This document shows, one piece after another, positions 1-33,287 of a stretch of DNA of 64,000 nt; within the stretch, counting starts at the first letter, position 1, and every line of letters starts with the position of its first letter. The position numbers and the translations under genes were made by a program. The notes beneath the pieces were generated by a model. It was not told the origin of the DNA. It saw nothing but the letters and a program-made list of their open reading frames with translations, and did no database searches. Location of the stretch: assembly GCF_056712565.1 (NCBI RefSeq), contig NZ_CM160072.1; one strand, written 5' to 3'.

Positions 1-736
1 CTTCGTAAAGCTCTTTACTGATAGGGATGCTTCTGTTTTTCTTCCCCTTCGTTCTGACAAAGGTAATTCGGTATTTGGTCACCTGTGAGCGGGTAAGATT
101 TACGGCTTCACGCCAGCGTGCGCCTGTGCTTAAGCATATCTTAACTACCAGTGCCAGAATTGGGTCCTGACGTTTGCAATCAGCCAGCAATTCAACAATC
201 TGCTCATGGGTAAGCCATGCCATCTCTTTTTCTGCGATGGTGAATTTTCGCATGTTCTCCAGTGGGTTCGGATACGACCATTCGCCCAGACGGGATAGTT
301 CGCTAAAAACACTACTTAGATAGCTTTGCTCCAGGTTAATGGTGACCGGGCTTGCTCCTTTCTTCCATTTCTCGCTGAAGTAGATCTCGCCTGTCAGGCG
401 TTTATCTCGATAATGGGCAAACATTTTAGAGGTGAGATCGGTTGCAAGAGGATTGCCCAGAGCGTCAACCATCAACAGCAATTTGTCATAGACATGCTGC
501 CCAGCTGTCAGAGATTTACCATGTAGTTTGAACCATAGCTCAACCACGTCTTTCAGTGTTCGACGATCCACTGATTCACCCAGCCAGGGCTTTGCTTCGG
601 TTTCTTCCATCGTGTGGCGCTCAAAAGCCAGTGCTTCGCCTTTGGTGGCGAATTGTTTACGCACACGACGCCCACTTCGTCCGGCGGGGTAACATTCGCA
701 AAGCCATTTCCCAGTGGTGAGTTTTCGTACTGCCAT
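1..736 (-). CDS. int: Phage integrase (tyrosine recombinase, P2 family); 3' end of gene lies beyond window start
   Basis: Reverse-strand reading from ATG at 736: MAVRKLTTGKWLCECYPAGRSGRRVRKQF...; ORF runs off position 1; position next to the immunity region. Confidence 0.85.
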   Translation of the reverse strand, partial: MAVRKLTTGKWLCECYPAGRSGRRVRKQFATKGEALAFERHTMEETEAKPWLGESVDRRTLKDVVELWFKLHGKSLTAGQHVYDKLLLMVDALGNPLATDLTSKMFAHYRDKRLTGEIYFSEKWKKGASPVTINLEQSYLSSVFSELSRLGEWSYPNPLENMRKFTIAEKEMAWLTHEQIVELLADCKRQDPILALVVKICLSTGARWREAVNLTRSQVTKYRITFVRTKGKKNRSIPISKELYE

Positions 737-924
737 AAAAAATGCCCTCCAGTAGAGAGCATTTTTACTGTATGTATAACCAGTGTCAATGTATGAAATC
801 CTACGACCATACATCTCACTGAAGCCATAATGAAGTTGGCTATTCTTTTTGCTATGTGAGCATGTAACTTTTGCGGTTAACCTGCGGCTCATTTTTATTT
901 TAGACGCAGATATAAAAGCAAAAG

Positions 925-1116
925 TTATCGTGAGTTTTTAGTACAGATTTTTTTGGATTTACTAATAGTTCCATCATTGCAAACAAATTTTCCATCGGAG
1001 GTACAGTGAGAGACACCTCCCTTTTTCCCAGAACAAGGATAATTTTTAGCATAGGTAGTTAGTGGGCTTAATAACAAAGAGCATGATAAAACCACAAAAA
1101 ATACTTTACCAAGCAT
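925..1116 (-). CDS. Small secreted Cys-rich protein (63 aa), hypothetical
   Basis: ORF-track protein with N-terminal hydrophobic signal-like segment and six cysteines; AT-rich DNA between int and cI. Confidence 0.4.
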
Positions 1117-1131
1117 AGTTTCCTCCCGGTA

Positions 1132-1701
1132 TTATCTAACATATTTAACTGTTAAACTTATAATTTTACCAATTATTTCAATGTCTTCTATCTTACATTC
1201 GAAGGCTCTGTTTCCACCCTCGACGAAGATTCTTCCACCGGGTAAACGAGTAATGTCACGGATCGTTACTTCGCCATCAATACTTATTACCCATTTACCA
1301 TCACGTATGTCATCAAATTCTTTATCACAAATAAATTCAGAATTGTTATCTGTGATGACAAAAGGTTTTTTAAACGTAGAGGGTAGAAATCCCTTATCAA
1401 AAATATAAAAACCGTCTTCACGCAAGGCACCATCAGATAATACATATTTAGCAACTTCCATAGTATTTGTATTACCTGAAGTTTGCTTTGAACCATGTCC
1501 GGTTGTGAGCCAATTAAGCGAGGTGCCCGTTTCAAGGGCGCACTGGATTACCCATTCTGCTGGGAATGAGTCACGCATGTAGCGTGTGGCGAGTGTACTT
1601 TTAGAGATTCCTAAATGATCGCACAACGCCTGTCGAGTCTTGAATCCATAAGCTTCTACCATGCGCTCTATGGCGCCTCGTCCGCCTTTCTCCAAATTCA
1701 T
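1132..1701 (-). CDS. cI: CI-type immunity repressor (HTH DNA-binding); start placed at internal ATG 1701 (track ORF extends to 1806)
   Basis: HTH-like segment QALCDHLGISKSTLATRYM; divergent to apl/cII as in phage 186; choosing ATG 1701 leaves a 125-bp switch region. Confidence 0.65.
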   Translation of the reverse strand: MNLEKGGRGAIERMVEAYGFKTRQALCDHLGISKSTLATRYMRDSFPAEWVIQCALETGTSLNWLTTGHGSKQTSGNTNTMEVAKYVLSDGALREDGFYIFDKGFLPSTFKKPFVITDNNSEFICDKEFDDIRDGKWVISIDGEVTIRDITRLPGGRIFVEGGNRAFECKIEDIEIIGKIISLTVKYVR

Positions 1702-1826
1702 GGTCACTCCAAGTGAACTTTTATCTTGACGATTTCGCCGTGCGATCGTATGTTTATGGTGTTCACAAAATACAAACGATCCGTATTCGTCCTGATTAAT
1801 CATCATTAAACGAGGAATGTTGCATC
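1702..1826. promoter_or_regulatory. Putative divergent early promoter/operator (lysis-lysogeny switch) region
   Basis: Intergenic between divergent cI and apl; contains inverted repeat AGTGAAC ... GTTCACA and TTGACG / TATGTT promoter-like hexamers. Confidence 0.35.
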
Positions 1827-2048
1827 ATGAGACCTAACATTTCAATCACTCTTACCACGCCTCATGTGACTATTGAACGCTATAGCGAGCTGACAGGGCT
1901 ATCCATCGATACCATCAATGACATGTTGGCTGATGGACGCCTTATCCGTCACCGTCTGCGCAAAGATAAAAAACGCGAAAAAGTGATGATCAACATAGCA
2001 GCAATGACCGTTGATGCGCTTTCAGAATGCAATCTAAACCTTAATTAG
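1827..2048 (+). CDS. apl: Apl/Cox-like excisionase / early transcriptional regulator (73 aa)
   Basis: First gene of the rightward early operon, divergent from cI; small basic protein. Confidence 0.55.
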
Positions 2049-2074
2049 TTCGATTCTGAAATACATCAGAGGCA

Positions 2075-2590
2075 TTGACCATGTTTGATTACCAAGTTTC
2101 CAAACATCCACATTTTGATGAAGCCTGTCGTGCATTTGCACTGCGCCACAATCTGGTGCAACTGGCAGAACGTGCAGGCATGAATGTGCAGATTCTGCGG
2201 AACAAGCTGAACCCAGCTCAGCCTCATTTATTAACCGCACCAGAAATCTGGCTGCTTACCGATCTGACTGAAGATTCAACGCTGGTAGATGGTTTTCTGG
2301 CACAGATTCATTGTCTGCCATGTGTACCGATTAATGAGGTGGCAAAAGAGAAACTGCCACATTACGTCATGAGTGCAACCGCAGAGATCGGGCGTGTTGC
2401 TGCAGGTGCGGTGTCTGGCGATGTAAAAACCTGTGCCGGTCGTCGTGATGCTATCAGCAGCATTAACTCTGTAACACGACTGATGGCGCTGGCTGCTGTT
2501 TCATTGCAGGCCCGTTTACAGGCTAATCCTGCGATGGCGAGTGCAGTTGATACCGTGACTGGCCTCGGTGCTTCATTCGGTTTGCTGTGA
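2075..2590 (+). CDS. cII: CII-like lysogeny-establishment regulator (171 aa)
   Basis: Second gene of early operon; size and position as 186 cII. Confidence 0.5.
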
Positions 2591-2597
2591 GGTGCTT

Positions 2598-2894
2598 ATG
2601 CTGACGAAAGAACCATCATTTGCATCGCTGCTGGTAAAACAAAGCCCGGCAATGCACTACGGTTACGGCTGGATCACGGGTGAGGATGGAAAACGCTGGC
2701 ATCCATGTCATTCACAAGATGAATTGCTGTCTGAATTGACCACGAGGAAACGGAGAAAGTCCAAATGTATGCGGCAGAAAGTGAAGTGGTTTATCAGTTT
2801 CGTTACAGAGGGGAGAGTTATTCAGTACCTGAAGATGATTTGCTCTGTTGCTATCCGTCATTGTCGGGAGATGGCAGTTACTTTTTCACGTTAA
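2598..2894 (+). CDS. Hypothetical early protein (start uncertain; overlaps next ORF)
   Basis: ORF-track frame from ATG 2598 directly after cII stop. Confidence 0.3.
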   Translation: MLTKEPSFASLLVKQSPAMHYGYGWITGEDGKRWHPCHSQDELLSELTTRKRRKSKCMRQKVKWFISFVTEGRVIQYLKMICSVAIRHCREMAVTFSR

Positions 2895-2989
2895 AGGATG
2901 GGACGTTTTTACGGGGAGAGCAGGTTAAAGAGACGATACGAAAAAATGTATCTCCTCTTGAGCGTTACCGTAAGAACAAAGAACGATAG
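2765..2989 (+). CDS. Hypothetical early protein (74 aa)
   Basis: ATG 2765 preceded by GGAG; in early operon. Confidence 0.4.
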   Translation: MYAAESEVVYQFRYRGESYSVPEDDLLCCYPSLSGDGSYFFTLKDGTFLRGEQVKETIRKNVSPLERYRKNKER

Positions 2990-3011
2990 CTGCGTTTGGG
3001 GAATATGAAGT

Positions 3012-3353
3012 ATGGCAATTAATGGCGCTGCAGCAACTGTTCCATTAAGCCCCGGTGAACGCCTGAATGGACTTAATCACATTGCGGAGTTAAGGGCGAA
3101 AGTTTTTGGCCTGAATATTGAGTCAGAGCTTGAGCAGTTTATTAAAGATATGCGTGATCCACGGGATATCAATAATGAACAAAATAAACGGGCACTGGCT
3201 GCCATATTCTTTATGGCAAAAATTCCAGCTGAACGTCATAGCATCAGCATTAATGAGCTGACCACTGACGAAAAGCGGGAGCTGATTAAAGCAATGAATC
3301 ATTTTCGTGCAGTGGTGAGCTTATTTCCCAGACGGCTAACCATGCCGAATTAA
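3012..3353 (+). CDS. Hypothetical early protein (113 aa)
   Basis: ORF in early operon, same strand. Confidence 0.5.
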   Translation: MAINGAAATVPLSPGERLNGLNHIAELRAKVFGLNIESELEQFIKDMRDPRDINNEQNKRALAAIFFMAKIPAERHSISINELTTDEKRELIKAMNHFRAVVSLFPRRLTMPN

Positions 3354-3414
3354 CCAACTAATGAAATTAATGGCGTAAACCCGCCGGGCATCCCTTTATC
3401 TAAATTCAGGAGAA

Positions 3415-3654
3415 TTGATTATGCGTAATATTGAAACCCTCTCGACCAAAACCGGACCGGATGACGCAGGGCTTAATATTTTACTGACAGAGGCTCGTCT
3501 GGAAGAACGCCGGGCAAGAGCAGAGGCAATGGCTGCCCGCCTTGATAGCCTTGCGTGCCATATCACATCCCGCCAGCTAAACCACGTCGAAGCGGCAGAA
3601 CTGCTGCGCGTGACTGCTGAAGCAATCCAGAACGAAGCGCAGGAGATCCACTAA
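3415..3654 (+). CDS. Hypothetical early protein (79 aa)
   Basis: ORF in early operon; stop overlaps next start. Confidence 0.45.
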   Translation: MIMRNIETLSTKTGPDDAGLNILLTEARLEERRARAEAMAARLDSLACHITSRQLNHVEAAELLRVTAEAIQNEAQEIH

Positions 3655-3881
3655 TGGCTGATGCAATGGATCTCGTACAGCAGCGCGTTGAAGAAGAACG
3701 CCAGCGTCATATCCGTGCTGCCCGTGCCAAAACGCCGGGCGTGTCCCGCGTGCTTTGCATTGAGTGTGAAGCGCCAATTCCGCCAGCACGCCGCCGTGCC
3801 ATTCCAGGTGTGCAGCTTTGCATTACCTGTCAGGAAATCGCAGAGCTGAAAGGCAAACATTACAACGGAGGTGCTGTATGA
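3654..3881 (+). CDS. TraR/DksA-family C4 zinc-finger protein
   Basis: CIECEAPIPPARRRAIPGVQLCITC: two CxxC pairs typical of TraR/DksA zinc fingers; ATGA overlap with dam. Confidence 0.7.
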   Translation: MADAMDLVQQRVEEERQRHIRAARAKTPGVSRVLCIECEAPIPPARRRAIPGVQLCITCQEIAELKGKHYNGGAV

Positions 3882-4735
3882 GCACCATCCTGAAATGGGC
3901 GGGAAATAAAACCGCCATTATGTCCGAACTGAAAAAGCATCTTCCTGCTGGCCCGCGACTGGTTGAACCTTTCGCGGGTTCCTGTGCAGTGATGATGGAG
4001 ACGGAGTACCCCAGCTATCTTGTTGCGGATATTAATCCTGATTTAATCAACCTCTATAAAAAGGTTGCTGCTGATTGTGAATCGTTTATATCTCGCGCCA
4101 GAGTTTTATTTGAGATCGCAAACAGGGAGGTGGCTTATTACAACATAAGGAAGGAGTTTAATTACTCAACTGAAATTACTGATTTCATGAAAGCGGTATA
4201 TTTCCTGTATCTCAATCGTCACGGTTACCGTGGTTTATGTCGCTATAACAAGAGCGGGCATTTCAACATTCCCTACGGCAATTATAAAAATCCGTATTTC
4301 CCTGAAAAAGAAATTCGCGCATTTGCAGAAAAAGCCCAGCGAGCAACGTTTATCTGCGCCAGCTTTGATGAAACGCTGGCGATGTTGAAGGCGGGGGATG
4401 TGGTGTATTGCGATCCACCGTATGACGGTACGTTTTCCGGCTATCACACTGACGGCTTCACTGAAGATGACCAGTATCACCTGGCATCTGTTCTTGAACA
4501 TCGGTCATCAGAAGGACATCCGGTCATTGTTTCTAACAGTGACACATCCCTGATCCGTTCGCTGTATCGCAATTTTACTCACCACTATATCAAGGTAAAA
4601 CGCATCATCGGTGTGGCAGCTGGCGAGGGTAAATCAGCAACAGAAATCATTGCTGTTTCCGGGCCGCGCTGCTGGGTGGGATTTGATTATTCGCGTGGCG
4701 TGGATAGTTCTGCCGTGTACGGAGTACGTGCATGA
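3878..4735 (+). CDS. dam: DNA adenine methyltransferase (Dam-like N6-adenine MTase), prophage-encoded
   Basis: N-terminal SAM-binding region KWAGNK...EPFAGS and catalytic DPPY motif (VYCDPPYDG); start ATG 3878 after GGAG. Confidence 0.85.
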
Positions 4736-7146
4736 GCCATGCCGATATGAACAACTGCTGCGGCTTTAACGAGGCTGCCGCAGCGTTCTCATGGAACAGC
4801 CCGAAAAAGGCCATTAACCCTTATCTGGACCCGGCGGAAGTTGCGCCGGTTTCTGCGCTTTCAAACCTGATCACTCTGTACGCTGCCGATAACGAGCAGG
4901 AACAGTTGCGCCGCGAGGCACTGAGTGATCAGGTCTGGGAGCGTTATTTTTTTAATGAATCACGTGATCCTGTCCAGCACGAAATGGAGCAGGATAAGCT
5001 CATTAGCCGGGCAAAGCTGGCGCATGAGCAGCAGCGTTTTAATCCGGATATGGTCATTCTGGCGGACGTCAACGCCCAGCCTTCCCATATCAGCAAGCCG
5101 CTGATGCAACGTATTGAATACTTCAGCAGCCTGGGCAGGCCAAAGGCTTATTCCCGCTATTTACGTGAGACGATTAAGCCATGTCTGGAACGACTGGAGC
5201 ATGTACGCGACAGCCAGCTATCTGCATCTTTTCGTTTTATGGCAAGCCATGTAGGGCTGGACGGCCTGCTGATTCTGCCTGAAATGAGTCAGGATCAGGT
5301 GAAACGCCTGTCTACCCTTGTCGCTGCGCATATGAGCATGTGCCTTGATGCAGCTTGTGGTGATTTGTATGCCACCGATGACGTTAAGCCAGAAGAAATC
5401 CGCAAGACATGGGAAAAGGTGGCAGCGGAAACCCTGCGTCTGGATGTCATCCCGCCTGCGTTTGAGCAACTCCGTCGGAAAAGAAACCGCCGTAAACCCG
5501 TGCCCTATGAACTCATTCCGGGTTCGCTGGCGCGTATGTTGTGCGCCGACTGGTGGTACCGGAAATTATGGAAAATGCGTTGCGAATGGCGGGAAGAGCA
5601 GTTGCGTGCTGTCTGCCTGGTCAGCAAAAAAGCATCTCCCTATGTCAGCTATGAAGCCGTGATGCATAAACGTGAGCAGCGCCGCAAGTCACTGGAGTTT
5701 TTCCGTTCTCATGAACTGGTGAACGAAGAGGGCGACACGCTGGATATGGAAGACGTGGTAAACGCCAGCAGCAGCAACCCGGCGCACCGCCGCAATGAGA
5801 TGATGGCCTGTGTTAAAGGTCTGGAGCTTATCGCGGAAATGCGCGGTGACTGCGCCGTTTTCTACACCATTACCTGTCCGTCACGTTTCCATTCCACGCT
5901 CAATAACGGCAGACCAAACCCAACCTGGACAAATGCGACGGTAAGACAAAGCAGCGATTATCTGGTCGGCATGTTTGCTGCATTTCGTAAGGCGATGCAC
6001 AAAGCCGGGTTGCGCTGGTATGGCGTGCGGGTGGCTGAGCCGCATCATGACGGTACAGTTCACTGGCACCTGTTGTGTTTTATGCGCAAAAAAGACCGCC
6101 GCGCCATTACTGCATTGTTGCGTAAGTTTGCCATCCGTGAAGACCGCGAGGAACTGGGTAATAACACTGGTCCACGCTTTAAATCTGAGCTGATAAACCC
6201 GCGCAAAGGAACGCCGACAAGCTACATCGCGAAATACATCAGTAAGAACATTGACGGGCGTGGTCTGGCTGGCGAGATCAGCAAGGAAACGGGTAAATCC
6301 CTGCGTGATAACGCTGAATACGTTAATGCCTGGGCGTCTCTGCATCGTGTTCAGCAATTCCGCTTCTTTGGTATTCCAGGGCGTCAGGCTTACCGTGAAC
6401 TGCGGTTGTTGGCTGGTCAGGCGGCAAGGCAGCAGGGTGACAAAAAAGCAGGTGCGCCGGTACTGGATAACCCGCGCCTTGATGCCATCCTGGCTGCTGC
6501 TGATGCTGGCTGTTTTGCCACCTACATTATGAGGCAGGGCGGCGTGCTGGTTCCTCGCAAATATCACTTGATCAGAACCGCTTATGAAATCAATGAAGAG
6601 CCGACCGCCTATGGCGATCACGGTATTCGTATTTATGGCATCTGGTCACCCATTGCAGAAGGCAAGATCTGCACTCATGCAGTGAAGTGGAAAATGGTTC
6701 GTAAAGCCGTTGACGTTCAGGAGGCGGCAGCCGACCAGGGCGCTTGCGCCCCTTGGACTCGTGGCAATAACTGTCCCCTTGCTGAAAATTTGAACCAACA
6801 AGGGAAAGACAAATCAGCTGATGGGGATACCAGGACGGACATTACCCGCATGGATGACAAGGAGTTGCACGATTACCTGCACAGTATGAGCAAAAAAGAG
6901 CGCCGGGAACTGGCTGCAAGGTTACGCCTGGTGAAACCGAAACGGCGTAAAGACTACAAACAGCGAATTATAGACCATCAGCGACAGCAGCTCGTCTATG
7001 AACTGAAGTCCAGAGGATTTAATGGCAGCGAGAAAGAGGTCGATTTACTCCTTCGCGGCGGCAGTATTCCGTCAGGAGCAGGCCTGCGTATCTTCTATCG
7101 GAACCAGCGTTTGCAGGAAGATGATAAGTGGCGAAACCTGTATTAA
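4732..7146 (+). CDS. A: Replication initiation endonuclease gpA (rolling-circle, P2 A family)
   Basis: 804-aa ORF downstream of the early operon; HxH (VHWHLL) and tyrosine-rich nicking region; synteny with P2/186 gene A. Confidence 0.85.
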
Positions 7147-7238
7147 TTACGCGGGTTAACAATTCGTGCTCTTAATAATACCAGGCATATCAGGCTAATG
7201 AACGTAAAAAAACGTTTTACATCAGTAAGATTATTATA

Positions 7239-7258
7239 TACTGTAAATATAAACAGTG
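7239..7258. promoter_or_regulatory. LexA (SOS) box
   Basis: TACTGTAAATATAAACAGTG fits CTGT-N8-ACAG exactly, about 40 bp upstream of the ATG at 7300. Confidence 0.6.
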
Positions 7259-7299
7259 GTTATGTATACAGTATTGCTTGTGGTGTCATAGGAGGAAAG

Positions 7300-7488
7300 A
7301 TGCAGGACTATTTTTTGGAGTCTTTGAAGCTCCAGCGCATTGATTTTTTTCTTAAGCTTGTAGCGGCTAGTGAGTGTAGTGATGAAGAGAAGGGGCTGGC
7401 TTTGCAGTGGGTTTCTGAACTGACAGATGAACTCATGGCAAAAATCAGAACCCACGAATACAACCGCTCAATGGATGTCATCAGCTGA
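7300..7488 (+). CDS. Small hypothetical protein (62 aa), probably SOS-regulated (Tum-position gene)
   Basis: ATG 7300 with AGGAGG RBS; immediately downstream of LexA box. Confidence 0.45.
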   Translation: MQDYFLESLKLQRIDFFLKLVAASECSDEEKGLALQWVSELTDELMAKIRTHEYNRSMDVIS

Positions 7489-7498
7489 GGTGACCTTT

Positions 7499-7732
7499 AT
7501 GCGCATTGAAATAATGATCGATAAAGAGCAGAAGATTAGCCAGTCTACCCTGGACGCCCTTGAATCCGAGCTTTACCGCAATCTGCGCCCCCTGTATCCC
7601 AAAACGGTAATTCGCATCCGCAAAGGTAGCTCTAACGGTGTGGAACTGACCGGACTGCAACTGGACGAAGAAAGAAAACAAGTGATGAAGATTATGCAGA
7701 AGGTGTGGGAAGACGACAGCTGGCTGCATTAA
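7499..7732 (+). CDS. dinI: DinI-like protein
   Basis: MRIEIMIDKEQ...WEDDSWL resembles E. coli DinI (MRIEVTIAK...WESADDWF); co-transcribed behind LexA box. Confidence 0.7.
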   Translation: MRIEIMIDKEQKISQSTLDALESELYRNLRPLYPKTVIRIRKGSSNGVELTGLQLDEERKQVMKIMQKVWEDDSWLH

Positions 7733-7891
7733 GAAAAGTTGCTGGCGTCTGAACTTGGTTCTGGCGTCAGCAAGGTTGAACAACGAGTACAGTGAGGCGT
7801 TAGGTGTGGCGTTTATTTGATGAGTGAACGCCCGTTCTGCGATAGGTTCGGAGATTAAGGTTGAAACTACGGGCAAAATACCATCTTTTTC

Positions 7892-8317
7892 CTACTTAAT
7901 TGAGTCCAGTAACAAGTTACAGTTACTCTCATTGTAGAGAGAACGAGCAATTAGTGTTACCTGCTTTCCATTCATTCCCGGCTTATCCCATAACACAGCT
8001 TCTTGCGACGCCACAAATTCAGCATAATCAATTATGCGTTGTTCGTGATCTGGTTCCTCATAGCCAAAGTATGAGAGCGCATCGTTGTAAGCGTGGTAAG
8101 CTGCTTTCTGTAATATCTTGATATCGGCTGTAGGTACTTGCTCCGTGTAGCTAGGATCTAATTGTGTGCTACTGCCATAGAATGCACATGAAAGGTAAGA
8201 TATTGATTTCTGTTGAGCTTTAGTTCCTTTCTCATAGTTTTTAGCTGTTACCGCCTGAACAGGGACGCTAACAAAGCTTGCAACCAGAATTAAAATTAAT
8301 ACGTAAAAGCTTTTCAT
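7892..8317 (-). CDS. Secreted hypothetical protein (141 aa) with signal peptide; accessory cargo
   Basis: N-terminus MKSFYVLILILVASFVSVPVQA is signal-peptide-like; AT-rich; lies between dinI-like gene and cos. Confidence 0.6.
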   Translation of the reverse strand: MKSFYVLILILVASFVSVPVQAVTAKNYEKGTKAQQKSISYLSCAFYGSSTQLDPSYTEQVPTADIKILQKAAYHAYNDALSYFGYEEPDHEQRIIDYAEFVASQEAVLWDKPGMNGKQVTLIARSLYNESNCNLLLDSIK

Positions 8318-8590
8318 TTTGACCTCAGCCGAAACGTTAGAGAGACTATCGAAATTTGTAAAACCCGTGGCGATTCAGTTTGAGATCCTCCCCCTTACAT
8401 GATTTTTAATCAAATATATGCTTTTGTAAGCATACCTGTTAACCGAATTATTTATTTTTAGAGATCTTCCGACATACTGATTATGCCCGCTGAGGAGTTC
8501 ACCTTGCGTAAAGTCCGATTCGCTTTACTCGTCTGTGCATGTCTATGCTGCATGAGATTGCATGATCGTTTGAGGATCGTTTTTGCTAAG

Positions 8591-8615
8591 GCCCGCCAGA
8601 ACTGGCGGGCTTTTG
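8591..8615 (+). terminator. Rho-independent terminator-like hairpin
   Basis: GCCCGCCA-GAAC-TGGCGGGC followed by TTTTG. Confidence 0.5.
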
Positions 8616-8659
8616 CGTAGATCATGCTCCTGCATGAAAACCACTACATAAAGCGGGCA

Positions 8660-8678
8660 GGCGTGGCGGGGATACGAG
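8660..8678. other. Putative cos (cohesive-end) site of the prophage
   Basis: GGCGTGGCGGGGATACGAG resembles the 19-nt P2/186 cohesive-end sequences as I recall them (GGCGTGGCGGGGA...); lies upstream of portal Q as expected. Confidence 0.45.
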
Positions 8679-8692
8679 CGCGCGCTTGCACC

Positions 8693-8721
8693 TTGATATT
8701 CACGGTTTGGTTAAGTATTGT
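8693..8721 (+). promoter_or_regulatory. Putative sigma70 promoter of the protease operon
   Basis: TTGATA - 17 bp - TATTGT, about 40 bp upstream of ATG 8762. Confidence 0.35.
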
Positions 8722-8761
8722 CTTAGTCAGAGTCCATAACATATTACAGAATGGAGTTGTT

Positions 8762-9409
8762 ATGATTGGTCCTGAATATGTCGTAGTTGTTGGCGTGCTT
8801 AATGCAGGTTTGGTTAGTTTTTTAGGAACAGGTTTTTTTATTTCTAAGGATAAAATAATTACTTCCCGCCATGTTATTAATGGGTTTTCTTCTAACTTAG
8901 TTATTTCTCCATCTAATATAAATAACTTTAATAGTTATCAGGATACAAGTGTTGATAAATTTCAATGTATTGGAGTTGATGTTATTGATGAAGATCCAAT
9001 AAAAGACTTATGTGTGTTAAAAATTAAAAATGCACCTGTTTATGAACCTTGCCTAAAAATTGCTACTCTTGACGATGTTAATGTCGGTGAAGATGTGGGT
9101 ATTTTAGGTTTCCCACATTGTAATGAAAATAGAAAAGTATTGACATTTCAAACGGCAAAAATAGGTGCAAAAGTTTTACTTTCAAGCAGTAATATTCAAT
9201 CTAAACATGCCGTTATAAATATCCAAACCAGACCTGGTCAATCGGGATCGATTGTATTTAATTTAAAAAATGACTCGGTAATAGGCGTCTTGGTTGGCGC
9301 TTATGCAAATAATTCTGGAGGTTCTGTTTTGGTTGGAGGTATTAATCCAGCTGAACTACATCAGACAACTTATGCGGTTTCTGCAGAATATGTTAAGGAT
9401 ATGTTATGA
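8762..9409 (+). CDS. Trypsin-fold (S1/chymotrypsin-like) serine protease, 215 aa; accessory cargo
   Basis: Catalytic triad contexts in order His (ITSRHVING), Asp (DLCVLKI), Ser (RPGQSGSIVF); GGAG RBS; very AT-rich; track ORF 5' extension to 8624 would cross cos. Confidence 0.8.
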   Translation: MIGPEYVVVVGVLNAGLVSFLGTGFFISKDKIITSRHVINGFSSNLVISPSNINNFNSYQDTSVDKFQCIGVDVIDEDPIKDLCVLKIKNAPVYEPCLKIATLDDVNVGEDVGILGFPHCNENRKVLTFQTAKIGAKVLLSSSNIQSKHAVINIQTRPGQSGSIVFNLKNDSVIGVLVGAYANNSGGSVLVGGINPAELHQTTYAVSAEYVKDML

Positions 9410-9852
9410 TTGCTATACCAAATGAAGATGCTGAGTCTTGGTTGTCCACTTTAAAAACGTATCAATCTTCATCTGTCAGGAATTTTCTCGAAAATGGCGA
9501 TGAAGAAAAGGCTCTTGAGCTATGGCTAACTGCATCTGGCCCAAGTTCAGTTGCTCAATTTGGCGGTGATAATTCAAAAATGCCGGGAAGAAAAGCGTTT
9601 GTTGAGCAGTTTAAATTAGAGTTTAAGGCTTTTGTATGTGGAGGTGATAAATATGCAGAGGAGAGGGAATGTTTAGGAGCACTGACTGGTGATGTTAAAA
9701 CATACTTTGTAGGGGTGATCTCTTCGGCAATTGCGGGTTCTTTGGGGGCAACAGCAACATTTATTGCTCCAGCTGTAGTAATTATGTTGATAGCTGTCTC
9801 AAAAATGGGAATTAATGCTTGGTGTTCATTAGAGACAACGACAGAATCTTAG
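9406..9852 (+). CDS. Small protein (148 aa) with C-terminal hydrophobic membrane anchor; partner of the protease
   Basis: ATGA start/stop overlap with protease gene (translational coupling); C-terminal segment YFVGVISSAIAGSLGATATFIAPAVVIMLIAVS is hydrophobic. Confidence 0.7.
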   Translation: MIAIPNEDAESWLSTLKTYQSSSVRNFLENGDEEKALELWLTASGPSSVAQFGGDNSKMPGRKAFVEQFKLEFKAFVCGGDKYAEERECLGALTGDVKTYFVGVISSAIAGSLGATATFIAPAVVIMLIAVSKMGINAWCSLETTTES

Positions 9853-9854
9853 GA

Positions 9855-9879
9855 AAACGCCCTTTTAGGGCGTTTTTTT
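9855..9879. terminator. Bidirectional rho-independent terminator between cargo operon and portal gene
   Basis: AAACGCCC-TTTTA-GGGCGTTT followed by T-run and preceded by A-run; overlaps Q stop codon. Confidence 0.7.
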
Positions 9880-10906
9880 ATAAATCATAATGCTGAAATC
9901 GGATAGTTTTCTCACCTAACCATTCATTAACTTCCATTATTCTTTTTTGGAGTGGAATTAGTTCATTTCTAACAAAAACCTTACTCGCCTTCTCCACATC
10001 CCCAAACCCTCCAACATTATTAGGCATTATCCCCATCATTTGTGGCGGCACACGATGCGCCGCCATCATGTCGTCCCGGCTCACGTTCTTGATATTCAGG
10101 AACTCATCCTTCGCCGCCACTTCTGACAACGGGATAATCTGAAGCCCGTCCTTTTTACCGTTAGGCGAGTACATAAACAGGTTACGGAAGTTACCAGGAC
10201 CTTTGGCACTTTTCATCGCGTTGCGGAGATTGTTCACATCCTCCTGATTCTGCGCGGCATCGGTCATATACATGATGAAGCCTGCATGGCTGCCGTTGAT
10301 GTAATACTTGCGGCGGAACAGCGTGGCGGACTTATTGAGCAGGGCTGACGGAATGGCAGAAAGATAGCCGGGCAGGCCGTAGATCTCCTGGTTGATGTCC
10401 GGTTCCATCAGATGAAAAATGCTGCCTTTCGTGAACTGATACGGCTGGGTTGTCATACCGTATTGCACAAACCAGTAGGTATCCAGGTCTAACCCGCGTC
10501 GGGTGTATTTTGCCAGCGCAGGATCAAGGGCGATAACTTCACCGAATCGGTTCGTGCGTTTCTCCAGGTAGGCGTTACCAAATACCAGATAGTCCTGCAC
10601 AAAACGCGAAAAAGCCTGCTGGCTGAGCAGCGGATGAGGGATATAGGTACTGGTCAGAATGTTGCACTTTACTGCAATCGGAGAACTGTGATGCACGGCG
10701 GCGCGGAAGGTGCGCGCCAGTCCGTCAAAGCTGACGGGCGGCTCATACCAGCGATCTGTCTGTACGCATTCCACATAGTCCAGCAGTTCACGGCGGTCCA
10801 GAACAGGAACGGGATCACCGAAGCTGAATGCTTCGGCTGAAGTCTGGCTTTTATGCTGGAGCTGGTTCGTCGACGCAGCGCGGTTCTTCTTACTCTTTCC
10901 CATCAA
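9878..10906 (-). CDS. Q: Portal protein gpQ
   Basis: 342-aa ORF; first leftward late gene; size and position as P2 Q. Confidence 0.9.
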   Translation of the reverse strand: MMGKSKKNRAASTNQLQHKSQTSAEAFSFGDPVPVLDRRELLDYVECVQTDRWYEPPVSFDGLARTFRAAVHHSSPIAVKCNILTSTYIPHPLLSQQAFSRFVQDYLVFGNAYLEKRTNRFGEVIALDPALAKYTRRGLDLDTYWFVQYGMTTQPYQFTKGSIFHLMEPDINQEIYGLPGYLSAIPSALLNKSATLFRRKYYINGSHAGFIMYMTDAAQNQEDVNNLRNAMKSAKGPGNFRNLFMYSPNGKKDGLQIIPLSEVAAKDEFLNIKNVSRDDMMAAHRVPPQMMGIMPNNVGGFGDVEKASKVFVRNELIPLQKRIMEVNEWLGEKTIRFQHYDL

Positions 10907-12630
10907 AAAATCTCCACAATATTACTGGTATTGGCGGACTCGCCCTGCAGTGGTTCGTTAAACAGTGCGTGCATTGTTGCCCAGGCCAGATCGGCGTGGC
11001 TGGCTTCTTCGCTGCGGCTGGCTTCATAGGTCGGGCGGTTGCCGCTGGCGGTGGTTGCGCGACGGATTGCCATGAATGACTGCGCAATGTCGGTGTGTCC
11101 GGCGTCAAACTCCAGACGGCGGTGGCTGATAATGTCGTAGGCCTTGAGTACCAGGGCGTTTTTAACGTTGGGGTTGTAGACAAACTCCCGGACGGCAGGA
11201 AAGAACGCTTTCACGTTCTCATAAACCCCGTGACCGACACCTGTCGAGTCGATGCCGATATATGTCACGTTGTACTGTTCGGTCAGTTTTTTGATGGCGT
11301 CCGCCTGGGCGCGGAAGTCCATCCCGCGCCACTGGTGACGCTCAAGAATACGGAACTTACCGCCCGGCACGGCTGGCGGAGCCACCACCACGCATCCGGC
11401 ACTGTCGCCGTTCTGCGTACCTTTTGCCGGGTCATAACCGATCCACACTTCGCGCCAGCCAAACGGGCGCAGCGCCAGTGCATGAAAGTCGGTCCAGACT
11501 TCCCAGCTGTCCACCATGCACGCCTGCAATTCGCTGAGCGGGAACACAGATGCGAGATCGTCAACGAACTCGCACATCAGCAGGTTCTGGTATTCGTCCG
11601 GGCTGTACTCCATGCGCAACTGGTCGAGGTCGAACAGGTTACAGCCGCCGCGTACCGCATCTTCCACGGTGACTATCTGGCGGTATTGCCCGTCTGCGCA
11701 CAGCAGGCCGGGGGCCAGATTGCTGTGGGACAGGTCGATGTCCACCTTATCGGCTTTGTTGCGCCCACGGTTGAACAACGCGCCGGACCAGAACGGATAA
11801 GCACTGTGGGTCAGGCTGGATGGCGTGGAAAAATAGGTCTGTCGCCATTTCTTGTGAATAGCCATACCGGAAGCCACTTTGCGCAGCTCCTGAAATTTTG
11901 GTATCCAGAAATATTCATCCAGATACAGGTTGCCGTGATAACTCTGGGCCGTGCGGGCATTGGTGCCTAGGAAGTAAAGCGTGGCCCCGTTAGGAAGCAC
12001 CATCGGATCGCCTTTCAGCTCCACCTCCACTTCTTTGGCGAAGTCGATGATGTACTGCTTAAAGACGTGGGCCTGTGCCTTACTGGCGGAAAGGAAAATC
12101 TGGTTACGCCCGGTAAGCAGAGCGTCAATCAGGGCTTCACGGGCAAAGTAAAAGGTTGCGCCGATCTGGCGTGACTTCAGCAGGTTGCGGATGCGGTTGT
12201 TTTTTCCGGCTTCCCACCAGTGGCGCTGGTAGTTGAACATGGAGGAATGGAAGATTTCTTCCAGCTTCTCAATCTGTTCATCGGTGAAAACGTTCTTTTC
12301 CGGCTGACGGCGCGGGCCTTTGTTGCGGTTGGCGACGTTAGGGTTTAAGTCGGCTTCGTTGCCGCCATTGTTAAACTTGCCGATCCGCGCATGGCGCTCC
12401 GACTGGCGCGCCAGCAGGTCAATCTCTTTGAAATCTTTCCCTTCTTTGTGCTCCTTCATAATGAGCTGGCAGTAGCGTGCGGCGGTGGTGAGCTGCATCT
12501 GATCCAGCGGCCCATAGTCACCCCACTTGTCGCGTTTTTTCCAGCTGTTCCAGTAAGTTTTTTCTAACGGAGCACGGCTCATGACAGTGAAAGCAAAGCG
12601 TTTTCGCATCGGGGTGGAAGGTGCCACCAC
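10903..12630 (-). CDS. P: Terminase large (ATPase) subunit gpP; true start probably downstream of 12630
   Basis: 575-aa ORF following Q; ATPase motifs; 5' end overlaps the divergent capsid ORF so start is uncertain. Confidence 0.85.
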   Translation of the reverse strand: MVAPSTPMRKRFAFTVMSRAPLEKTYWNSWKKRDKWGDYGPLDQMQLTTAARYCQLIMKEHKEGKDFKEIDLLARQSERHARIGKFNNGGNEADLNPNVANRNKGPRRQPEKNVFTDEQIEKLEEIFHSSMFNYQRHWWEAGKNNRIRNLLKSRQIGATFYFAREALIDALLTGRNQIFLSASKAQAHVFKQYIIDFAKEVEVELKGDPMVLPNGATLYFLGTNARTAQSYHGNLYLDEYFWIPKFQELRKVASGMAIHKKWRQTYFSTPSSLTHSAYPFWSGALFNRGRNKADKVDIDLSHSNLAPGLLCADGQYRQIVTVEDAVRGGCNLFDLDQLRMEYSPDEYQNLLMCEFVDDLASVFPLSELQACMVDSWEVWTDFHALALRPFGWREVWIGYDPAKGTQNGDSAGCVVVAPPAVPGGKFRILERHQWRGMDFRAQADAIKKLTEQYNVTYIGIDSTGVGHGVYENVKAFFPAVREFVYNPNVKNALVLKAYDIISHRRLEFDAGHTDIAQSFMAIRRATTASGNRPTYEASRSEEASHADLAWATMHALFNEPLQGESANTSNIVEIF

Positions 12631-13930
12631 CGACGGACGCGAAATCCAGCGTGAATGGCTGGAACAGATGGCAGCCAGCTACAACCCGGCGGTGTATACC
12701 GCGCTGATTAACCTTGAGCACATCAAGTCTTATATACCGGACAGCACCTTTAACCGCTACGGCAAGGTGACGGCGCTGTTTGCTGAAGAAATCACGGAAG
12801 GTCCGCTGGCAGGCAAGATGGCGCTGTATGCCGACGTTGAGCCAACGGAGTCCCTGGTGGAACTGGTGAAAAAAGGCCAGAAATTATTCACCTCTATGGA
12901 AGTCAGCCCGAAGTTCGCTGATACGGGCAAAGCCTACCTGGTCGGCCTGGCTGCCACTGATGACCCTGCCAGTCTGGGTACGGAAATGCTGACATTCAGC
13001 GCCAGTGCAGCCCATAACCCGCTGGCAAACCGCAAGCAGAATCCTGCCATGACTGAGCAGTCCGGTCAGCTGCTGGGGCTGGGTGTTGGCAGCACCATTG
13101 CCGGAACCACTGACACCACCGCAAAAGAGCGTGAACCTGTCGATCCGACGCTGATGGTCGATGTGGAATATAAATGCGAGCAGACCAACTTTGACACGGT
13201 GCTGACCTACGCGAAGCTGGACCTGTGGGCGAAGTTTCAGGATTTCCAGGTGCGTATCCGTGACGCCATCGTGAAACGTCAGGCACTGGACCGCATCATG
13301 ATCGGCTTTAACGGCGTGAAGCGTGCGAAAACCTCCAACCGTAGTGAAAACCCGCTGCTGCAGGATGTGAACAAAGGCTGGCTGCAGAAAATCCGTGAGG
13401 ATGCACCGGATCACGTCATGGGCAGCACCACCACGGGCGGCGAAACCACACCGGGTGCGGTGAAAGTCGGTAAAGGGGGCGAATATGCCAACTTGGACGC
13501 TGTGGTGATGGATGCGGTCAATGAGCTTATCGACGTGGTCTACCAGGACGATGACGATCTGGTGGTGATTTGCGGTCGTGAACTGCTGTCTGACAAGTAT
13601 TTCCCGCTGGTCAACAAAGAGCAGGAAAACAGTGAAAAATTGGCAGCCGATATGATTATCAGTCAGAAACGCATGGGCGGTCTGCAGGCCGTGCGTGCGC
13701 CGTTCTTCCCGCCGAATGCGCTGCTGATCACCCGTCTGGATAACCTGTCCATCTACTGGCAGGAAGACACCCGCCGCCGTTCAGTTATCGACAACCCGAA
13801 ACGTGACCGGATTGAAAACTTTGAATCCGTTAACGAAGCCTATGTGGTTGAGGACTACCGCTGCGCCGCACTGGTGGAAAACATCCAGATTGGTGATTTC
13901 AGCGCCGCCGCAGCCGAAACCGGAGCGTAA
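12581..13930 (+). CDS. Capsid protein with N-terminal gpO-like scaffold/protease region and C-terminal gpN-like major-capsid region in one 449-aa ORF
   Basis: N-terminus FRIGVEGATTDGR resembles P2 gpO start as I recall it; C-terminal half LITRLDNLSIYWQE...DNPKRDRIENFES...VVEDY resembles P2 gpN; single uninterrupted frame. Confidence 0.75.
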   Translation: MTVKAKRFRIGVEGATTDGREIQREWLEQMAASYNPAVYTALINLEHIKSYIPDSTFNRYGKVTALFAEEITEGPLAGKMALYADVEPTESLVELVKKGQKLFTSMEVSPKFADTGKAYLVGLAATDDPASLGTEMLTFSASAAHNPLANRKQNPAMTEQSGQLLGLGVGSTIAGTTDTTAKEREPVDPTLMVDVEYKCEQTNFDTVLTYAKLDLWAKFQDFQVRIRDAIVKRQALDRIMIGFNGVKRAKTSNRSENPLLQDVNKGWLQKIREDAPDHVMGSTTTGGETTPGAVKVGKGGEYANLDAVVMDAVNELIDVVYQDDDDLVVICGRELLSDKYFPLVNKEQENSEKLAADMIISQKRMGGLQAVRAPFFPPNALLITRLDNLSIYWQEDTRRRSVIDNPKRDRIENFESVNEAYVVEDYRCAALVENIQIGDFSAAAAETGA

Positions 13931-17965: not shown

Positions 17966-19924
17966 ATGATAGTAGGGATTTTTTTAAGGTATTTTAAAAC
18001 ATACAACGGAAATCATTACATACCGTTATCTTCTGGAAGTCAGTTTTGTGGAATTGTTGGTAACAATGGAATTGGCAAAAGTTCTGTTCTTGAGGCTTTA
18101 GATTCGTTTATTAATAACAAACCATGGAATATTAATTCTTCATTTAAAAGAACCTCCAGTGACAGACCTTCTCCACATATTGTTCCTTTATATCTTATAA
18201 AGCGAGAGGAATTACATGAAGATCATCATGCTAAAGCTGAAATCTTAACGCAATTAGTATTAGAATATAGCAATAGTAATGCTGATGTTACATTGACGCC
18301 AACAACACGAAATATAATTAATACGTTTTTTGAACATATTAACAAATTAAAAAGAAATTTAAATCTCCAAGATTATTTTTTGATCCCTCTGGGTGTCGAG
18401 AAAGATGGTGATGTAAGTATTTCGATTCTTAATGGGAAGAGTTTATGTCGACTTTTGGAGGTTGATAATCCCGATAATAAAGTTTCGAGCGAGTTGCTTA
18501 GTAAGCACTTTGGGTATTTATTACATCATGTCCGCCATAAGTATGAATATATATATATTCCAAAGGATATAGACTCTGAATCGTTTACGAAGCTAGAAAC
18601 AAGTGAAGTACAAAAGTTGATGGGTGAGTCTTTAGAGCAGATAATTAAAGATAGAATATCTGATAGAACCATAAGTCAAATCAATACAGGGCTTGCCAAA
18701 TTTCTGGATGGTGTTGAAGAGGAGCTTGAAGAATATGGTTATAGAACATCTGGCGAGAGACAATCGCGATTAAAAAAGAAAGATGTTTATAATTTGATTA
18801 TCGAAGCATTCTTCAAAGTTAGGAAATTAAATAAAAAGCAGAATTCAGGTTGGATTGAAATTAGCTCGCTAAGTTCAGGGGAGAAGCAACGTGCAATAAT
18901 GGATATTGCATATGGGTTTCTTACCAATCATAGAGAAAATGGCGATAATCTGATTATTGGAATTGATGAGCCAGAATGTTCTCTTCATATGTCTGCATGT
19001 TTTGAACAATTTGAAAAGCTCTATTCTATTAGTGGTATATGTGAACAATTAATATTTACTTCACATTGGTATGGCTATCTTCCAACCGTCGAAAATGGAT
19101 GTACCACAACTATCCTTAAAACAGATTCAACTCATCATTTTGAATTATATGATCTTGCCAGTTATAGAGAAGAAGTCAGGAAGAAAGTAAAAACCTCTTC
19201 CCCGGGTATGCCATTTGATATAAAAATAAAAAGTGTAAATGACCTTATACAATCCATAATATCTAGCTGTTTGGCTGAGAAACCTTACAATTGGTTGATT
19301 TGTGAGGGTACTACAGAAAAAATATATCTTTCGCATTATCTAAAGGACTTGGTAGAAAATAAAAGGCTAAGGATTGTGCCTGTAGGGGGAGCTAGTGAAG
19401 TTAAAAAAATATTTAAGCATTTAGAAGCTTCTTATGAAGAGTTCAAAAAAGACCTCAAAGGAAAAGTGTTCTTACTAACCGATACAGATTCAGAGTTGGT
19501 GTCATATGATACCCCAGTTATGCCGCATGTTGTTTGTAAGCGAATTGTTAGTGTAGGTGATTCAGTGAAGTTGGTTGATATTTCTTCCAATCCAGTTTCT
19601 CCTGCAACAGAAATAGAGGATTGTCTTAATCCTGTATCGTTTATAGAGGCTTTAACATCATTTTCTTCACGTTTTCCTGAGCTTCAGGCATTGCTGCCTA
19701 ATAGTAATGTTATGATAGATGAAAGACATTCATCGTTTGCTGCGATGGATTTGTCACCCAAGAACAAAAAAACGCTTGATGCTTTTTTTGACCGTGAAGG
19801 AATTAAGTTTGATTTTTCAAAGGAATATATTTCAATCTGTGAGCGAAATGAGCGGAAAAGGCCAGAGTGGATTGCCAAAATTGAAAATTTTTTTATAAGT
19901 GATAAACCTGTAAAGTTTAATTGA
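17966..19924 (+). CDS. OLD-family ATP-dependent nuclease (ABC ATPase + TOPRIM), 652 aa; accessory defence-type cargo
   Basis: Walker A GNNGIGKSS, ABC signature LSSGEKQ, Walker B LIIGIDEPE, H-loop FTSHW; C-terminal TOPRIM-like WLICEGTTE and LLTDTDSE; same motif layout as host YbjD in this window; AT-rich. Confidence 0.85.
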   Translation: MIVGIFLRYFKTYNGNHYIPLSSGSQFCGIVGNNGIGKSSVLEALDSFINNKPWNINSSFKRTSSDRPSPHIVPLYLIKREELHEDHHAKAEILTQLVLEYSNSNADVTLTPTTRNIINTFFEHINKLKRNLNLQDYFLIPLGVEKDGDVSISILNGKSLCRLLEVDNPDNKVSSELLSKHFGYLLHHVRHKYEYIYIPKDIDSESFTKLETSEVQKLMGESLEQIIKDRISDRTISQINTGLAKFLDGVEEELEEYGYRTSGERQSRLKKKDVYNLIIEAFFKVRKLNKKQNSGWIEISSLSSGEKQRAIMDIAYGFLTNHRENGDNLIIGIDEPECSLHMSACFEQFEKLYSISGICEQLIFTSHWYGYLPTVENGCTTTILKTDSTHHFELYDLASYREEVRKKVKTSSPGMPFDIKIKSVNDLIQSIISSCLAEKPYNWLICEGTTEKIYLSHYLKDLVENKRLRIVPVGGASEVKKIFKHLEASYEEFKKDLKGKVFLLTDTDSELVSYDTPVMPHVVCKRIVSVGDSVKLVDISSNPVSPATEIEDCLNPVSFIEALTSFSSRFPELQALLPNSNVMIDERHSSFAAMDLSPKNKKTLDAFFDREGIKFDFSKEYISICERNERKRPEWIAKIENFFISDKPVKFN

Positions 19925-19958: not shown

Positions 19959-20006
19959 CTAACCTCTAACCTCTAACCTCTAACCTCTAACCTCTAACCT
20001 CTAACC
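19959..20006. repeat. Heptanucleotide tandem repeat (CTAACCT) x ~6.9
   Basis: Six perfect CTAACCT units plus CTAACC read directly from the sequence; intergenic between cargo gene and V promoter. Confidence 0.95.
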
Positions 20007-20034: not shown

Positions 20035-20052
20035 TGTATCTTCTTTTATACA
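20035..20052 (+). promoter_or_regulatory. Putative Ogr-dependent late promoter element upstream of V
   Basis: TGT-N12-ACA dyad (TGTatcttcttttatACA), the conserved activator site of P2 late promoters; P2 has a late promoter before V. Confidence 0.5.
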
Positions 20053-20099
20053 AAATAAGCTGTTTGAAGAGGTTGTGTAAAGCATGGAAAAATAATCTT

Positions 20100-20678
20100 A
20101 TGAATACACAACTCACAGAAATCATGCGCCTTATCACCAACCTGATCCGCACAGGGGTAGTCACTGAAGTGGACAAGGAAAACTGGCTTTGTCGGGTGAA
20201 AACGGGCGACCTTGAAACCAACTGGATTAACTGGCTGACGCTGCGCGCGGGTAATGCCCGCACATGGTGGCGACCATCGGAAGGTGAGCAGGTGGTGCTG
20301 CTGAGTCTGGGAGGAAATCTGGAAACCGCCTTTGCGCTGCCCGCTGTCTATTCGAATCAGTTCGCACCACCGTCGACGTCGGCGGAAGCCTGCGTGACAG
20401 AACATCCTGACGGTGGCTGGTTTGAATACGAACCAGCCACCGGGCGCTGGTATGTCAGGGGCATCAAATCCATGGTCATTGAGGCTGCTGACAACATCAC
20501 CCTGAAAACCAGAGAGTTTGTGCTGGAGGCTGACCGCACGCGTATTAACAGCGAAGTAGTGATCAATGGTGGTGTTACCCAGGGCGGCGGTGCAATGAGT
20601 TCTAACGGAATTGTGGTTGATGCACATCAGCATACTGGCGTCCTGAAAGGCGGCGACACAACCGGAGGCCCGGTATGA
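20100..20678 (+). CDS. V: Baseplate spike protein gpV
   Basis: N-terminus and WWRPSEGEQV region resemble P2 gpV; synteny. Confidence 0.85.
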   Translation: MNTQLTEIMRLITNLIRTGVVTEVDKENWLCRVKTGDLETNWINWLTLRAGNARTWWRPSEGEQVVLLSLGGNLETAFALPAVYSNQFAPPSTSAEACVTEHPDGGWFEYEPATGRWYVRGIKSMVIEAADNITLKTREFVLEADRTRINSEVVINGGVTQGGGAMSSNGIVVDAHQHTGVLKGGDTTGGPV

Positions 20679-25404: not shown

Positions 25405-25431
25405 CCCCGGTTTTTATTCAAGGAGATGATC

Positions 25432-26046: not shown

Positions 26047-26064
26047 TGTGTGAATAACGGTACA
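26047..26064 (+). promoter_or_regulatory. Putative Ogr-dependent late promoter element upstream of FI
   Basis: TGT-N12-ACA dyad (TGTgtgaataacggtACA) about 80 bp upstream of FI ATG. Confidence 0.5.
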
Positions 26065-33068: not shown

Positions 33069-33287
33069 ATGATGATTTGCCCACTGTGTGGAAGTGCCGC
33101 CCATACTCGCAGCAGTTTTCAGGTATCTTCATTGACCAAAGAGCGTTATAACCAGTGCCAGAACATTAACTGCAGCCATACTTTTGTTACCCATGAAACT
33201 TTTGTTCGTTCGATTGCAACACCAAAAGAGTCTAATCCAGTTCAGCCGCATCCAATGAAATCAGGACAGGTGGCGCTCTCTCTTTGA
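33069..33287 (+). CDS. ogr: Ogr late-gene transcriptional activator (zinc finger)
   Basis: MMICPLCGSAAHTRSS...CQNINCSHTF: Cys4 zinc-binding pattern as in P2 Ogr; last prophage gene. Confidence 0.8.
   Translation: MMICPLCGSAAHTRSSFQVSSLTKERYNQCQNINCSHTFVTHETFVRSIATPKESNPVQPHPMKSGQVALSL

Follow-up and report, generated by a model that had tools for sequence, protein, structure and literature searches.

In the 64,000-nucleotide stretch of DNA analyzed here (the window; contig NZ_CM160072.1 of assembly GCF_056712565.1), the terminase and capsid genes of a prophage are divergent and appear to overlap, which raises the question of where the terminase gene begins and where the late promoters of the two genes are placed. 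The ORF table lists a minus-strand terminase (P) ORF at 10903..12630, with a GTG start and 575 amino acids, and a plus-strand capsid ORF at 12581..13930, with an ATG start and 449 amino acids, and the two share 50 nt (12581-12630). The P frame contains in-frame ATG codons at 12609, 12582 and 12498, none of which is preceded by a convincing Shine-Dalgarno sequence, and no such sequence was found before the GTG at 12630.

An earlier note, made from the letters of this DNA alone, had observed that the overlapping ORFs leave no spacer for late promoters, and this is correct, as the ORF table confirms the overlap and only 32 nt of the original spacer are left. Two explanations had been put forward in it, a P start that lies well downstream, or a rearrangement of the promoter region in keeping with a fused capsid gene. 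The comparison with relatives supports the second, for a 231-bp deletion lies at the junction of 12548 and 12549, with flanks that are 100% identical to those of intact relatives. Judged from sequence comparison, the element very probably descends, by very recent deletion, from an intact prophage that is widespread, with loss of the P start, a shared activator-binding dyad and both core promoters, the overlap being a by-product.

The element is a P2/186-like prophage adjoining ybjL in the E. coli chromosome, and is an Elveevirus-like member of the Peduoviridae. The window opens within the prophage integrase gene. The early region is similar to that of phage 186, with CI, CII, Fil, a DNA adenine methylase and a replication endonuclease; the late region resembles that of P2. 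The prophage carries two defense-type cargo loci, both intact, and its immunity, integration and tail operons, together with this cargo, appear from their sequences to be intact still.

The region was initially searched among phage records and complete E. coli genomes. A query of 1401 bases mapped, in three pieces, onto 2191 bases of the best relatives, and thus the window is short of 790 bases. The reference for further comparison was the prophage of E. coli MS15052 (NZ_CP082097.1, about 945.3-979.7 kb; positions in this locus are given with the prefix L001), which shares its insertion site and cargo with the prophage of the window. Its head genes are all separate, with P of 588 aa, O of 277 aa and N of 352 aa, and the distance from P to O is 142 bp.

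The window was compared with MS15052 over 43.6 kb. Apart from the differences listed in Table 1, the segments 1-12548, 12549-13049 and 13050 onward are 100% identical to this relative over the length compared; in blastn, window 9000-12548 corresponds to L001 101-3649 at 100%, and window 12549 corresponds to L001 3881. The sole mismatch in the 43.6 kb falls inside the inverted tail-fiber segment. In a deletion-defective prophage, essential genes or control regions should be absent by comparison with close intact relatives at that locus, as is the case here with two deletions between identical flanks.

Table 1. Features of the prophage late region and differences from the MS15052 prophage (window positions)
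Feature	Position	Strand	Description
Portal gene Q	9878..10906	-	Intact; 100% identical to the annotated MS15052 portal gene
Terminase large-subunit gene P, remnant	10903..12548	-	Matches the native gene from codon 41 (second base) through the stop codon
Deletion 1 junction	12548..12549		231 bp gone (L001 3650-3880); gap relative to MS15052
Non-native 5' extension of the P ORF	12549..12630	-	27 codons and the first base of codon 28
Predicted O mRNA leader	12549..12580	+	32 nt; Shine-Dalgarno GGAG at 12569-12572; no promoter DNA left
O-N fusion ORF	12581..13930	+	449 aa; O(1-156), junction Met, N(61-352), in frame
Deletion 2 junction	13049..13050		559 bp gone (L001 4382-4940); gap relative to MS15052
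Tandem repeat	near 20000		Difference from MS15052: one extra 7-bp unit
Dyad upstream of V	20035-20052	+	TGTATCTTCTTTTATACA; exact TGT-N12-ACA; candidate pV activator site, kept; V ATG at 20100
Tail-fiber segment	23572-25367		Difference from MS15052: inverted, invertase-controlled
Dyad upstream of FI	26047-26064	+	TGTGTGAATAACGGTACA; exact TGT-N12-ACA; predicted pF activator site; FI ATG at 26141
Ogr/Delta/B-type zinc-finger late activator gene	33069..33287	+	Intact; 72 aa; CX2CX22CX4C

The first deletion removes 121 nt of P coding sequence (codons 1-40 and the first base of codon 41). It also takes 110 nt of the P-O intergenic region, out of 142, including the shared dyad. No microhomology was found at its ends. 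A relocation of the missing DNA within the window was ruled out, as the deleted 231 bp have no counterpart elsewhere in the window except for a single 15-nt chance match.

Alignment of P with its homologues places the native start codon 121 nt beyond the junction, in DNA that is now absent. The N-terminus of the intact protein, MNTTLTPADLDPRRQAMLLYFQGYRVARIAEMLGEKVATVHSWKKRDKW, aligns to P2 gpP from residue 1, while the first 28 residues of the window protein, VVAPSTPMRKRFAFTVMSRAPLEKTYWN, have no counterpart in either P2 gpP or the intact sibling. In the protein alignment, homology of the window protein begins at S42, and native residues 1-41 are gone. The suggestion that P starts well downstream is thus rejected, since the bases that encode the native start, as fixed by comparison with P2 gpP and the intact sibling, are no longer present. 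No recognizable divergent promoter region accompanies a P start near 12498 either; the ATG at 12498 is the codon of native Met58, internal to the gene. Internal starts at 12609, 12582 or 12498 are likewise ruled out by the homologue alignment and the missing Shine-Dalgarno sequences.

The loss is also evident at the level of Pfam domains. In intact P the Terminase_5 profile is matched over positions 1-58 with 94.6 bits, whereas in the window protein only positions 32-58 of 58 are matched, with 28.5 bits. Terminase_6N and Terminase_6C are intact in the window protein at full profile length, with E-values of 2.8e-65 and 1.7e-49. A functional gpP is expected to have a complete Terminase_5 domain and a native start codon, both of which are lacking, and ATPase and nuclease domains, which are present. 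The record of phage 186 notes a putative helix-turn-helix DNA-binding motif in Orf12, the homologue of P. Translation of P from an internal codon would be expected to yield a protein that misses half of this N-terminal helix-turn-helix (Terminase_5) domain.

The 5' extension of the P ORF is the antisense of the O leader and of the first 17 codons of O. The truncated P frame would have remained open by chance across the junction into antisense O, up to the GTG at 12630. Twenty-seven consecutive codons are free of stops by chance with a probability of ~0.27, calculated as (61/64)^27, and for this reason the overlap of the P and capsid ORFs is not in itself a signal. The overlap is a by-product of ORF calling over a deletion junction and does not represent a true overlapping-gene arrangement.

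The second deletion is located 501 bp from the first and extends from the 3' part of O across the O-N spacer into the 5' part of N, also with no microhomology at its ends. In the Pfam comparison the resulting ORF contains positions 2-152 of the 268 of Phage_GPO, followed by positions 53-327 of the 327 of Phage_cap_P2. The encoded protein is a fusion of the N-terminal half of the scaffold/protease with a major capsid protein devoid of its first 60 residues, and the C-terminal half of the scaffold is gone.

The direction of the change follows from its distribution. Of 5426 complete E. coli genomes, 1078 carry the 231-bp segment with >=80% coverage, in most cases at an identity of 95-100%, and the deletion is for this reason the derived state. 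A 54-mer that spans the first junction was found in none of the 5426 complete genomes, and the same was true of a 54-mer over the second; a 34-mer over the first junction had no match in IMG/VR or the JGI metagenomes. The exact fusion protein and two variants of the truncated P had no record among ~15 billion proteins. By these sequence searches both junction alleles are private, and they appear to be very recent, given that the rest of the element is near base-perfect relative to the intact sibling over the 43.6 kb compared.

Such privacy is also what would be expected if the deletions were errors of assembly or consensus, or lesions made in the laboratory in an otherwise intact prophage. The absence of the junctions and of their protein products from all these collections, the lack of microhomology at either deletion and the near base-perfect remainder all fit this reading, which is nevertheless unlikely. 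The other differences from MS15052, a 7-bp repeat unit and a flipped tail-fiber segment, are typical of natural variation and speak for a real, distinct isolate. Assembly errors do not usually take the form of clean deletions of a few hundred base pairs in non-repetitive DNA, and comparable decay is found in another strain, PSS-10.

P2 has four Ogr-dependent late promoters with the consensus TGT-N12-ACA, which serve PQ, ONMLKRS, VWJIHG and FI-FII-E-E'-T-U-D, and in one P2-like phage a divergent pair of late promoters has one common site (PMC3931495). It had been noted previously that such a dyad is absent from the terminase/capsid boundary and present upstream of V and FI, and scans of the window bear this out: no exact match is found near the P/capsid site, and none with one mismatch allowed in 12293-12704. 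The window contains ten exact copies of TGT-N12-ACA, where chance alone would give 14.5. As the bare motif is not enriched, its absence from a site is not significant by itself, and only the position of a dyad and its homology carry weight.

The deleted DNA contains the dyad TGTGTGGTTGTCGGTACA at L001 3817-3834, which in an alignment of eight phages falls on the annotated activator sites of P2 and 186. The TGT...ACA arms of this dyad are kept in 6 of 6 related phages, two of which are just 79-81% identical, and it matches the pF dyad of the same prophage at 13 of 18 positions.

The P2 record (NC_001895) gives a shared activator site at 3057-3087, described as ‘pO, pP promoters’, with the +1 of pP at 3016 and that of pO at 3127, each 55.5 nt from the center of the dyad. 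P starts at 2993 and O at 3167, and the P operon encodes P and Q. The 186 record (NC_001317) similarly gives a single B-protein site at 3798-3817 for activation of pV and p12. When the P2 distance is applied to the deleted dyad (center at L001 3825.5), the +1 of pO is predicted at L001 3881, which is the first base kept to the right of the deletion, at window 12549. The start codons of P and O are separated by 173 bp in P2, 165 bp in 186 and 142 bp in the intact sibling.

A P2/186-type pP/pO pair is expected to have a dyad between P and O at about 55 nt from each transcription start, a non-coding spacer and a cognate zinc-finger activator. The homologous dyad was part of the 231 bp that are missing, and what is left of the spacer, 32 nt, is covered by the P ORF. 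The activator is encoded at 33069-33287; its translation contains CPLC-X22-CQNINC, and in MS15052, where the segment is 100% identical, the gene is labelled as an ogr/Delta-like zinc finger family protein. A consensus scan of 12200-12900 gave no sigma-70-like promoter, which is weak evidence, as the scan is blank in the intact region too, as expected for activator-dependent promoters. A degenerate dyad or a cryptic promoter at the junction was likewise rejected, with no dyad at one mismatch and no site in the sigma-70 scan, the latter being weak evidence.

The 231-bp deletion removed the start codon and 40 codons of P, the single shared dyad of the Ogr/B type and, as predicted from the P2 geometry, both divergent core promoters. 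The late activator is still encoded, but would have no target site at P/O. From the operon maps of P2 and 186, the P-Q operon and the O operon would be left without a promoter and could not be switched on. Q is intact but would be promoterless, because it comes last in the P-Q operon and would lose its promoter together with P. In the P2 operon map the O operon comprises O-N-M-L-X-Y-K-lysA-lysB-R-S, which includes the holin, the endolysin and the tail-completion genes R and S. With the O-N fusion added, the prophage would make no terminase, portal, scaffold or capsid, and would neither complete tails nor lyse the cell.

We infer from the sequence and from the analogy with P2 and 186 that both operons are silenced, that P function is lost and that the prophage is defective for heads, packaging and lysis. 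Some transcription of O-N may occur by read-through from the plus-strand cargo genes at 8624-9852, and a cryptic promoter may lie beyond the reach of a simple consensus scan. A domesticated tail cluster of the tailocin type was considered and ruled out, as the P2 map puts the lysis genes and R and S in the promoterless O operon.

It is conceivable that the paired lesions were selected as a disarming of the prophage, in which expression of heads, packaging and lysis is abolished and a low level of the fusion or of the truncated terminase poisons the assembly of incoming P2-like phages, but this is very unlikely. If it were true, the strain would keep its immunity functions and late activator along with the tail operons and two defense cargo loci. 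Likewise very unlikely is a selected domestication in which read-through yields the in-frame O-N fusion, the truncated P or both as dominant-negative inhibitors of incoming P2-like phages, or in which the lesions simply disarm lysis in a strain that retains immunity and defense cargo. Both lesions do leave long open frames, and the genes for immunity, the activator and tails, as well as the two defense-type loci, are intact, as domestication would have it. However, neither frame is left with a promoter, one deletion in three would be in frame by chance, and the open run in P is itself a frequent outcome of chance (~0.27). The alleles are moreover private and not spread through a lineage, and the near-identity of the remaining element leaves no time for a visible trace of selection.

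Just as improbable is a natural compact arrangement with P starting internally, at 12498 or nearby, and late promoters embedded in coding DNA: in-frame ATGs are available and the ATPase and nuclease domains are intact, but the native start is in the missing DNA, the candidate starts have no Shine-Dalgarno sequence, no dyad even at one mismatch and no promoter-like site is found, Terminase_5 is halved, and the 231 bp are kept in 1078 genomes with the compact form in 0 of 5426.

The deletion-derivative reading has consequences for annotation. P should be annotated as an N-terminally truncated pseudogene and not as a 575-aa gene that overlaps the capsid gene, and the 449-aa “capsid” as an O-N fusion pseudogene. 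Although it is otherwise almost base-identical to an intact relative, the prophage should be classed as defective in head formation, packaging and lysis. It illustrates that the loss of a short segment from a control region serving both directions can silence two operons together and give the appearance of overlapping genes, and it provides an example of very early prophage decay. The case is one of ordinary prophage decay within the known layout of P2/186 late genes, with no new mechanism.

The gene order in the window prophage, with Q-P leftward and O-N-M-L rightward, is the same as that around pP/pO in P2, and the late activator likewise belongs to the Ogr type. Between P and O of the intact sibling, the dyad occupies the position of the P2 site, while in the window the whole unit is missing. 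The shorter spacer of the sibling, 142 bp as compared to 173 bp in P2, would place the P start codon at the predicted transcription start of pP, and the P2 geometry accordingly predicts a leaderless P mRNA in the intact relatives, beginning at the A of its AUG. In the p12/pV pair of phage 186, one activator site serves two divergent promoters, whereas site and promoters are both missing from the window. In its early region the window prophage resembles 186, and its P is without the first half of the N-terminal Terminase_5 domain.

The intact siblings, namely the MS15052 prophage, Klebsiella phage 4LV2017 (Elveevirus), Escherichia phage Cartapus and Escherichia phage 500465-1, show 97.7-100% nucleotide identity over P-O-N. 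All four keep both the 231 bp and the 559 bp, and their P (588 aa), O (277 aa) and N (352 aa) are unfused. The prophage of E. coli PSS-10 (NZ_AP027685.1) is similar to that of the window in that the N-terminus of P and the P/O promoter region were lost by an internal deletion, and its P remnant is annotated by PGAP as a pseudogene missing the N-terminus. This relative decayed independently. PSS-10 has lost far more, from P to gene X and also from a truncated CII gene into the portal gene Q, and the comparison of the two sequences indicates that the window prophage, with two small lesions and otherwise pristine, is at a much earlier stage of decay.

In the intact sibling prophage of E. coli MS15052, the start codon of the terminase gene P coincides exactly with the transcription start predicted from the P2 geometry, according to which transcription begins 55.5 nt from the centre of the TGT-N12-ACA dyad; the start codon lies at that same distance of 55.5 nt. 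A -10-like hexamer, TAGGTT, ends 6 nt ahead of the A of the ATG. With the start codon in this position, the terminase mRNA of the intact lineage is predicted to be leaderless. The corresponding DNA (3768–3790 in the coordinates of the sibling locus, L001) has been deleted from the window.

The centre of the dyad upstream of V is located 56.5 nt ahead of the V ATG at 20100, and by the same geometry the V transcript is predicted to have almost no leader. The DNA around this dyad is AT-rich and closely follows a cargo gene that has been inserted there, so the dyad may not mark the ancestral late promoter of V, pV. The cargo gene encodes an ATPase composed of AAA_15 and OLD-like_TOPRIM domains, for which AriA is the best PADLOC match and Old the next. 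Its insertion site is presumably outside the two classical P2 cargo sites. The heptanucleotide repeat that follows has one unit more than in MS15052, which suggests, from the sequences compared, that it is subject to slipped-strand variation beside a late promoter.

Features of the prophage and of its decayed relative (window coordinates unless an accession is given)
Feature	Location	Strand	Context
141-aa ORF, signal-peptide-like N-terminus	7892–8317	-	
Two-gene cargo	8624–9852	+	just upstream of portal gene Q
652-aa ATPase with OLD-like TOPRIM domain	17966–19924	+	inserted between S and V
Tandem TAACCTC repeat, six full units and one partial	19960–20006		between cargo ATPase gene and pV dyad
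Region from the dyad upstream of V to the V ATG	20035–20102		
Tail-fibre/tail-fibre-assembly segment	23572–25367		
Recombinase gene	25426–25998		adjoins tail-fibre segment
L010, relative in E. coli PSS-10 with independent decay	NZ_AP027685.1 3032191–3038235		

The two products of the cargo beside Q, a trypsin-like S1 peptidase (261 aa, according to the ORF call) and a 148-aa protein, match A and B of the candidate defence system PDC-M35 with E-values of 8e-94 and 4e-58, and the position of the cargo is that of the P2 hotspot adjoining Q. The 141-aa ORF, which has neither a Pfam nor a PADLOC match, is placed within the low-GC cargo region, with a DinI-like gene on one side and the PDC-M35-like pair on the other. 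The tail-fibre segment has the opposite orientation in MS15052 and looks like a Cin/Gin-type host-range switch in its alternative orientation.

In the PSS-10 relative, one deletion has brought gene X right up against the N-terminal region of P, and another spans the DNA between the truncated CII gene and a point within the portal gene. All four remnants are annotated by PGAP as pseudogenes.

Two features of the P sequence support the view that P in the intact lineage really begins at the upstream ATG: relatives differ by a 3-nt indel located ahead of Met17, and the domain matched by Pfam begins at residue 11. The leaderless mRNA predicted for the intact sibling would differ from those of P2 and 186, which have leaders of ~23 nt.
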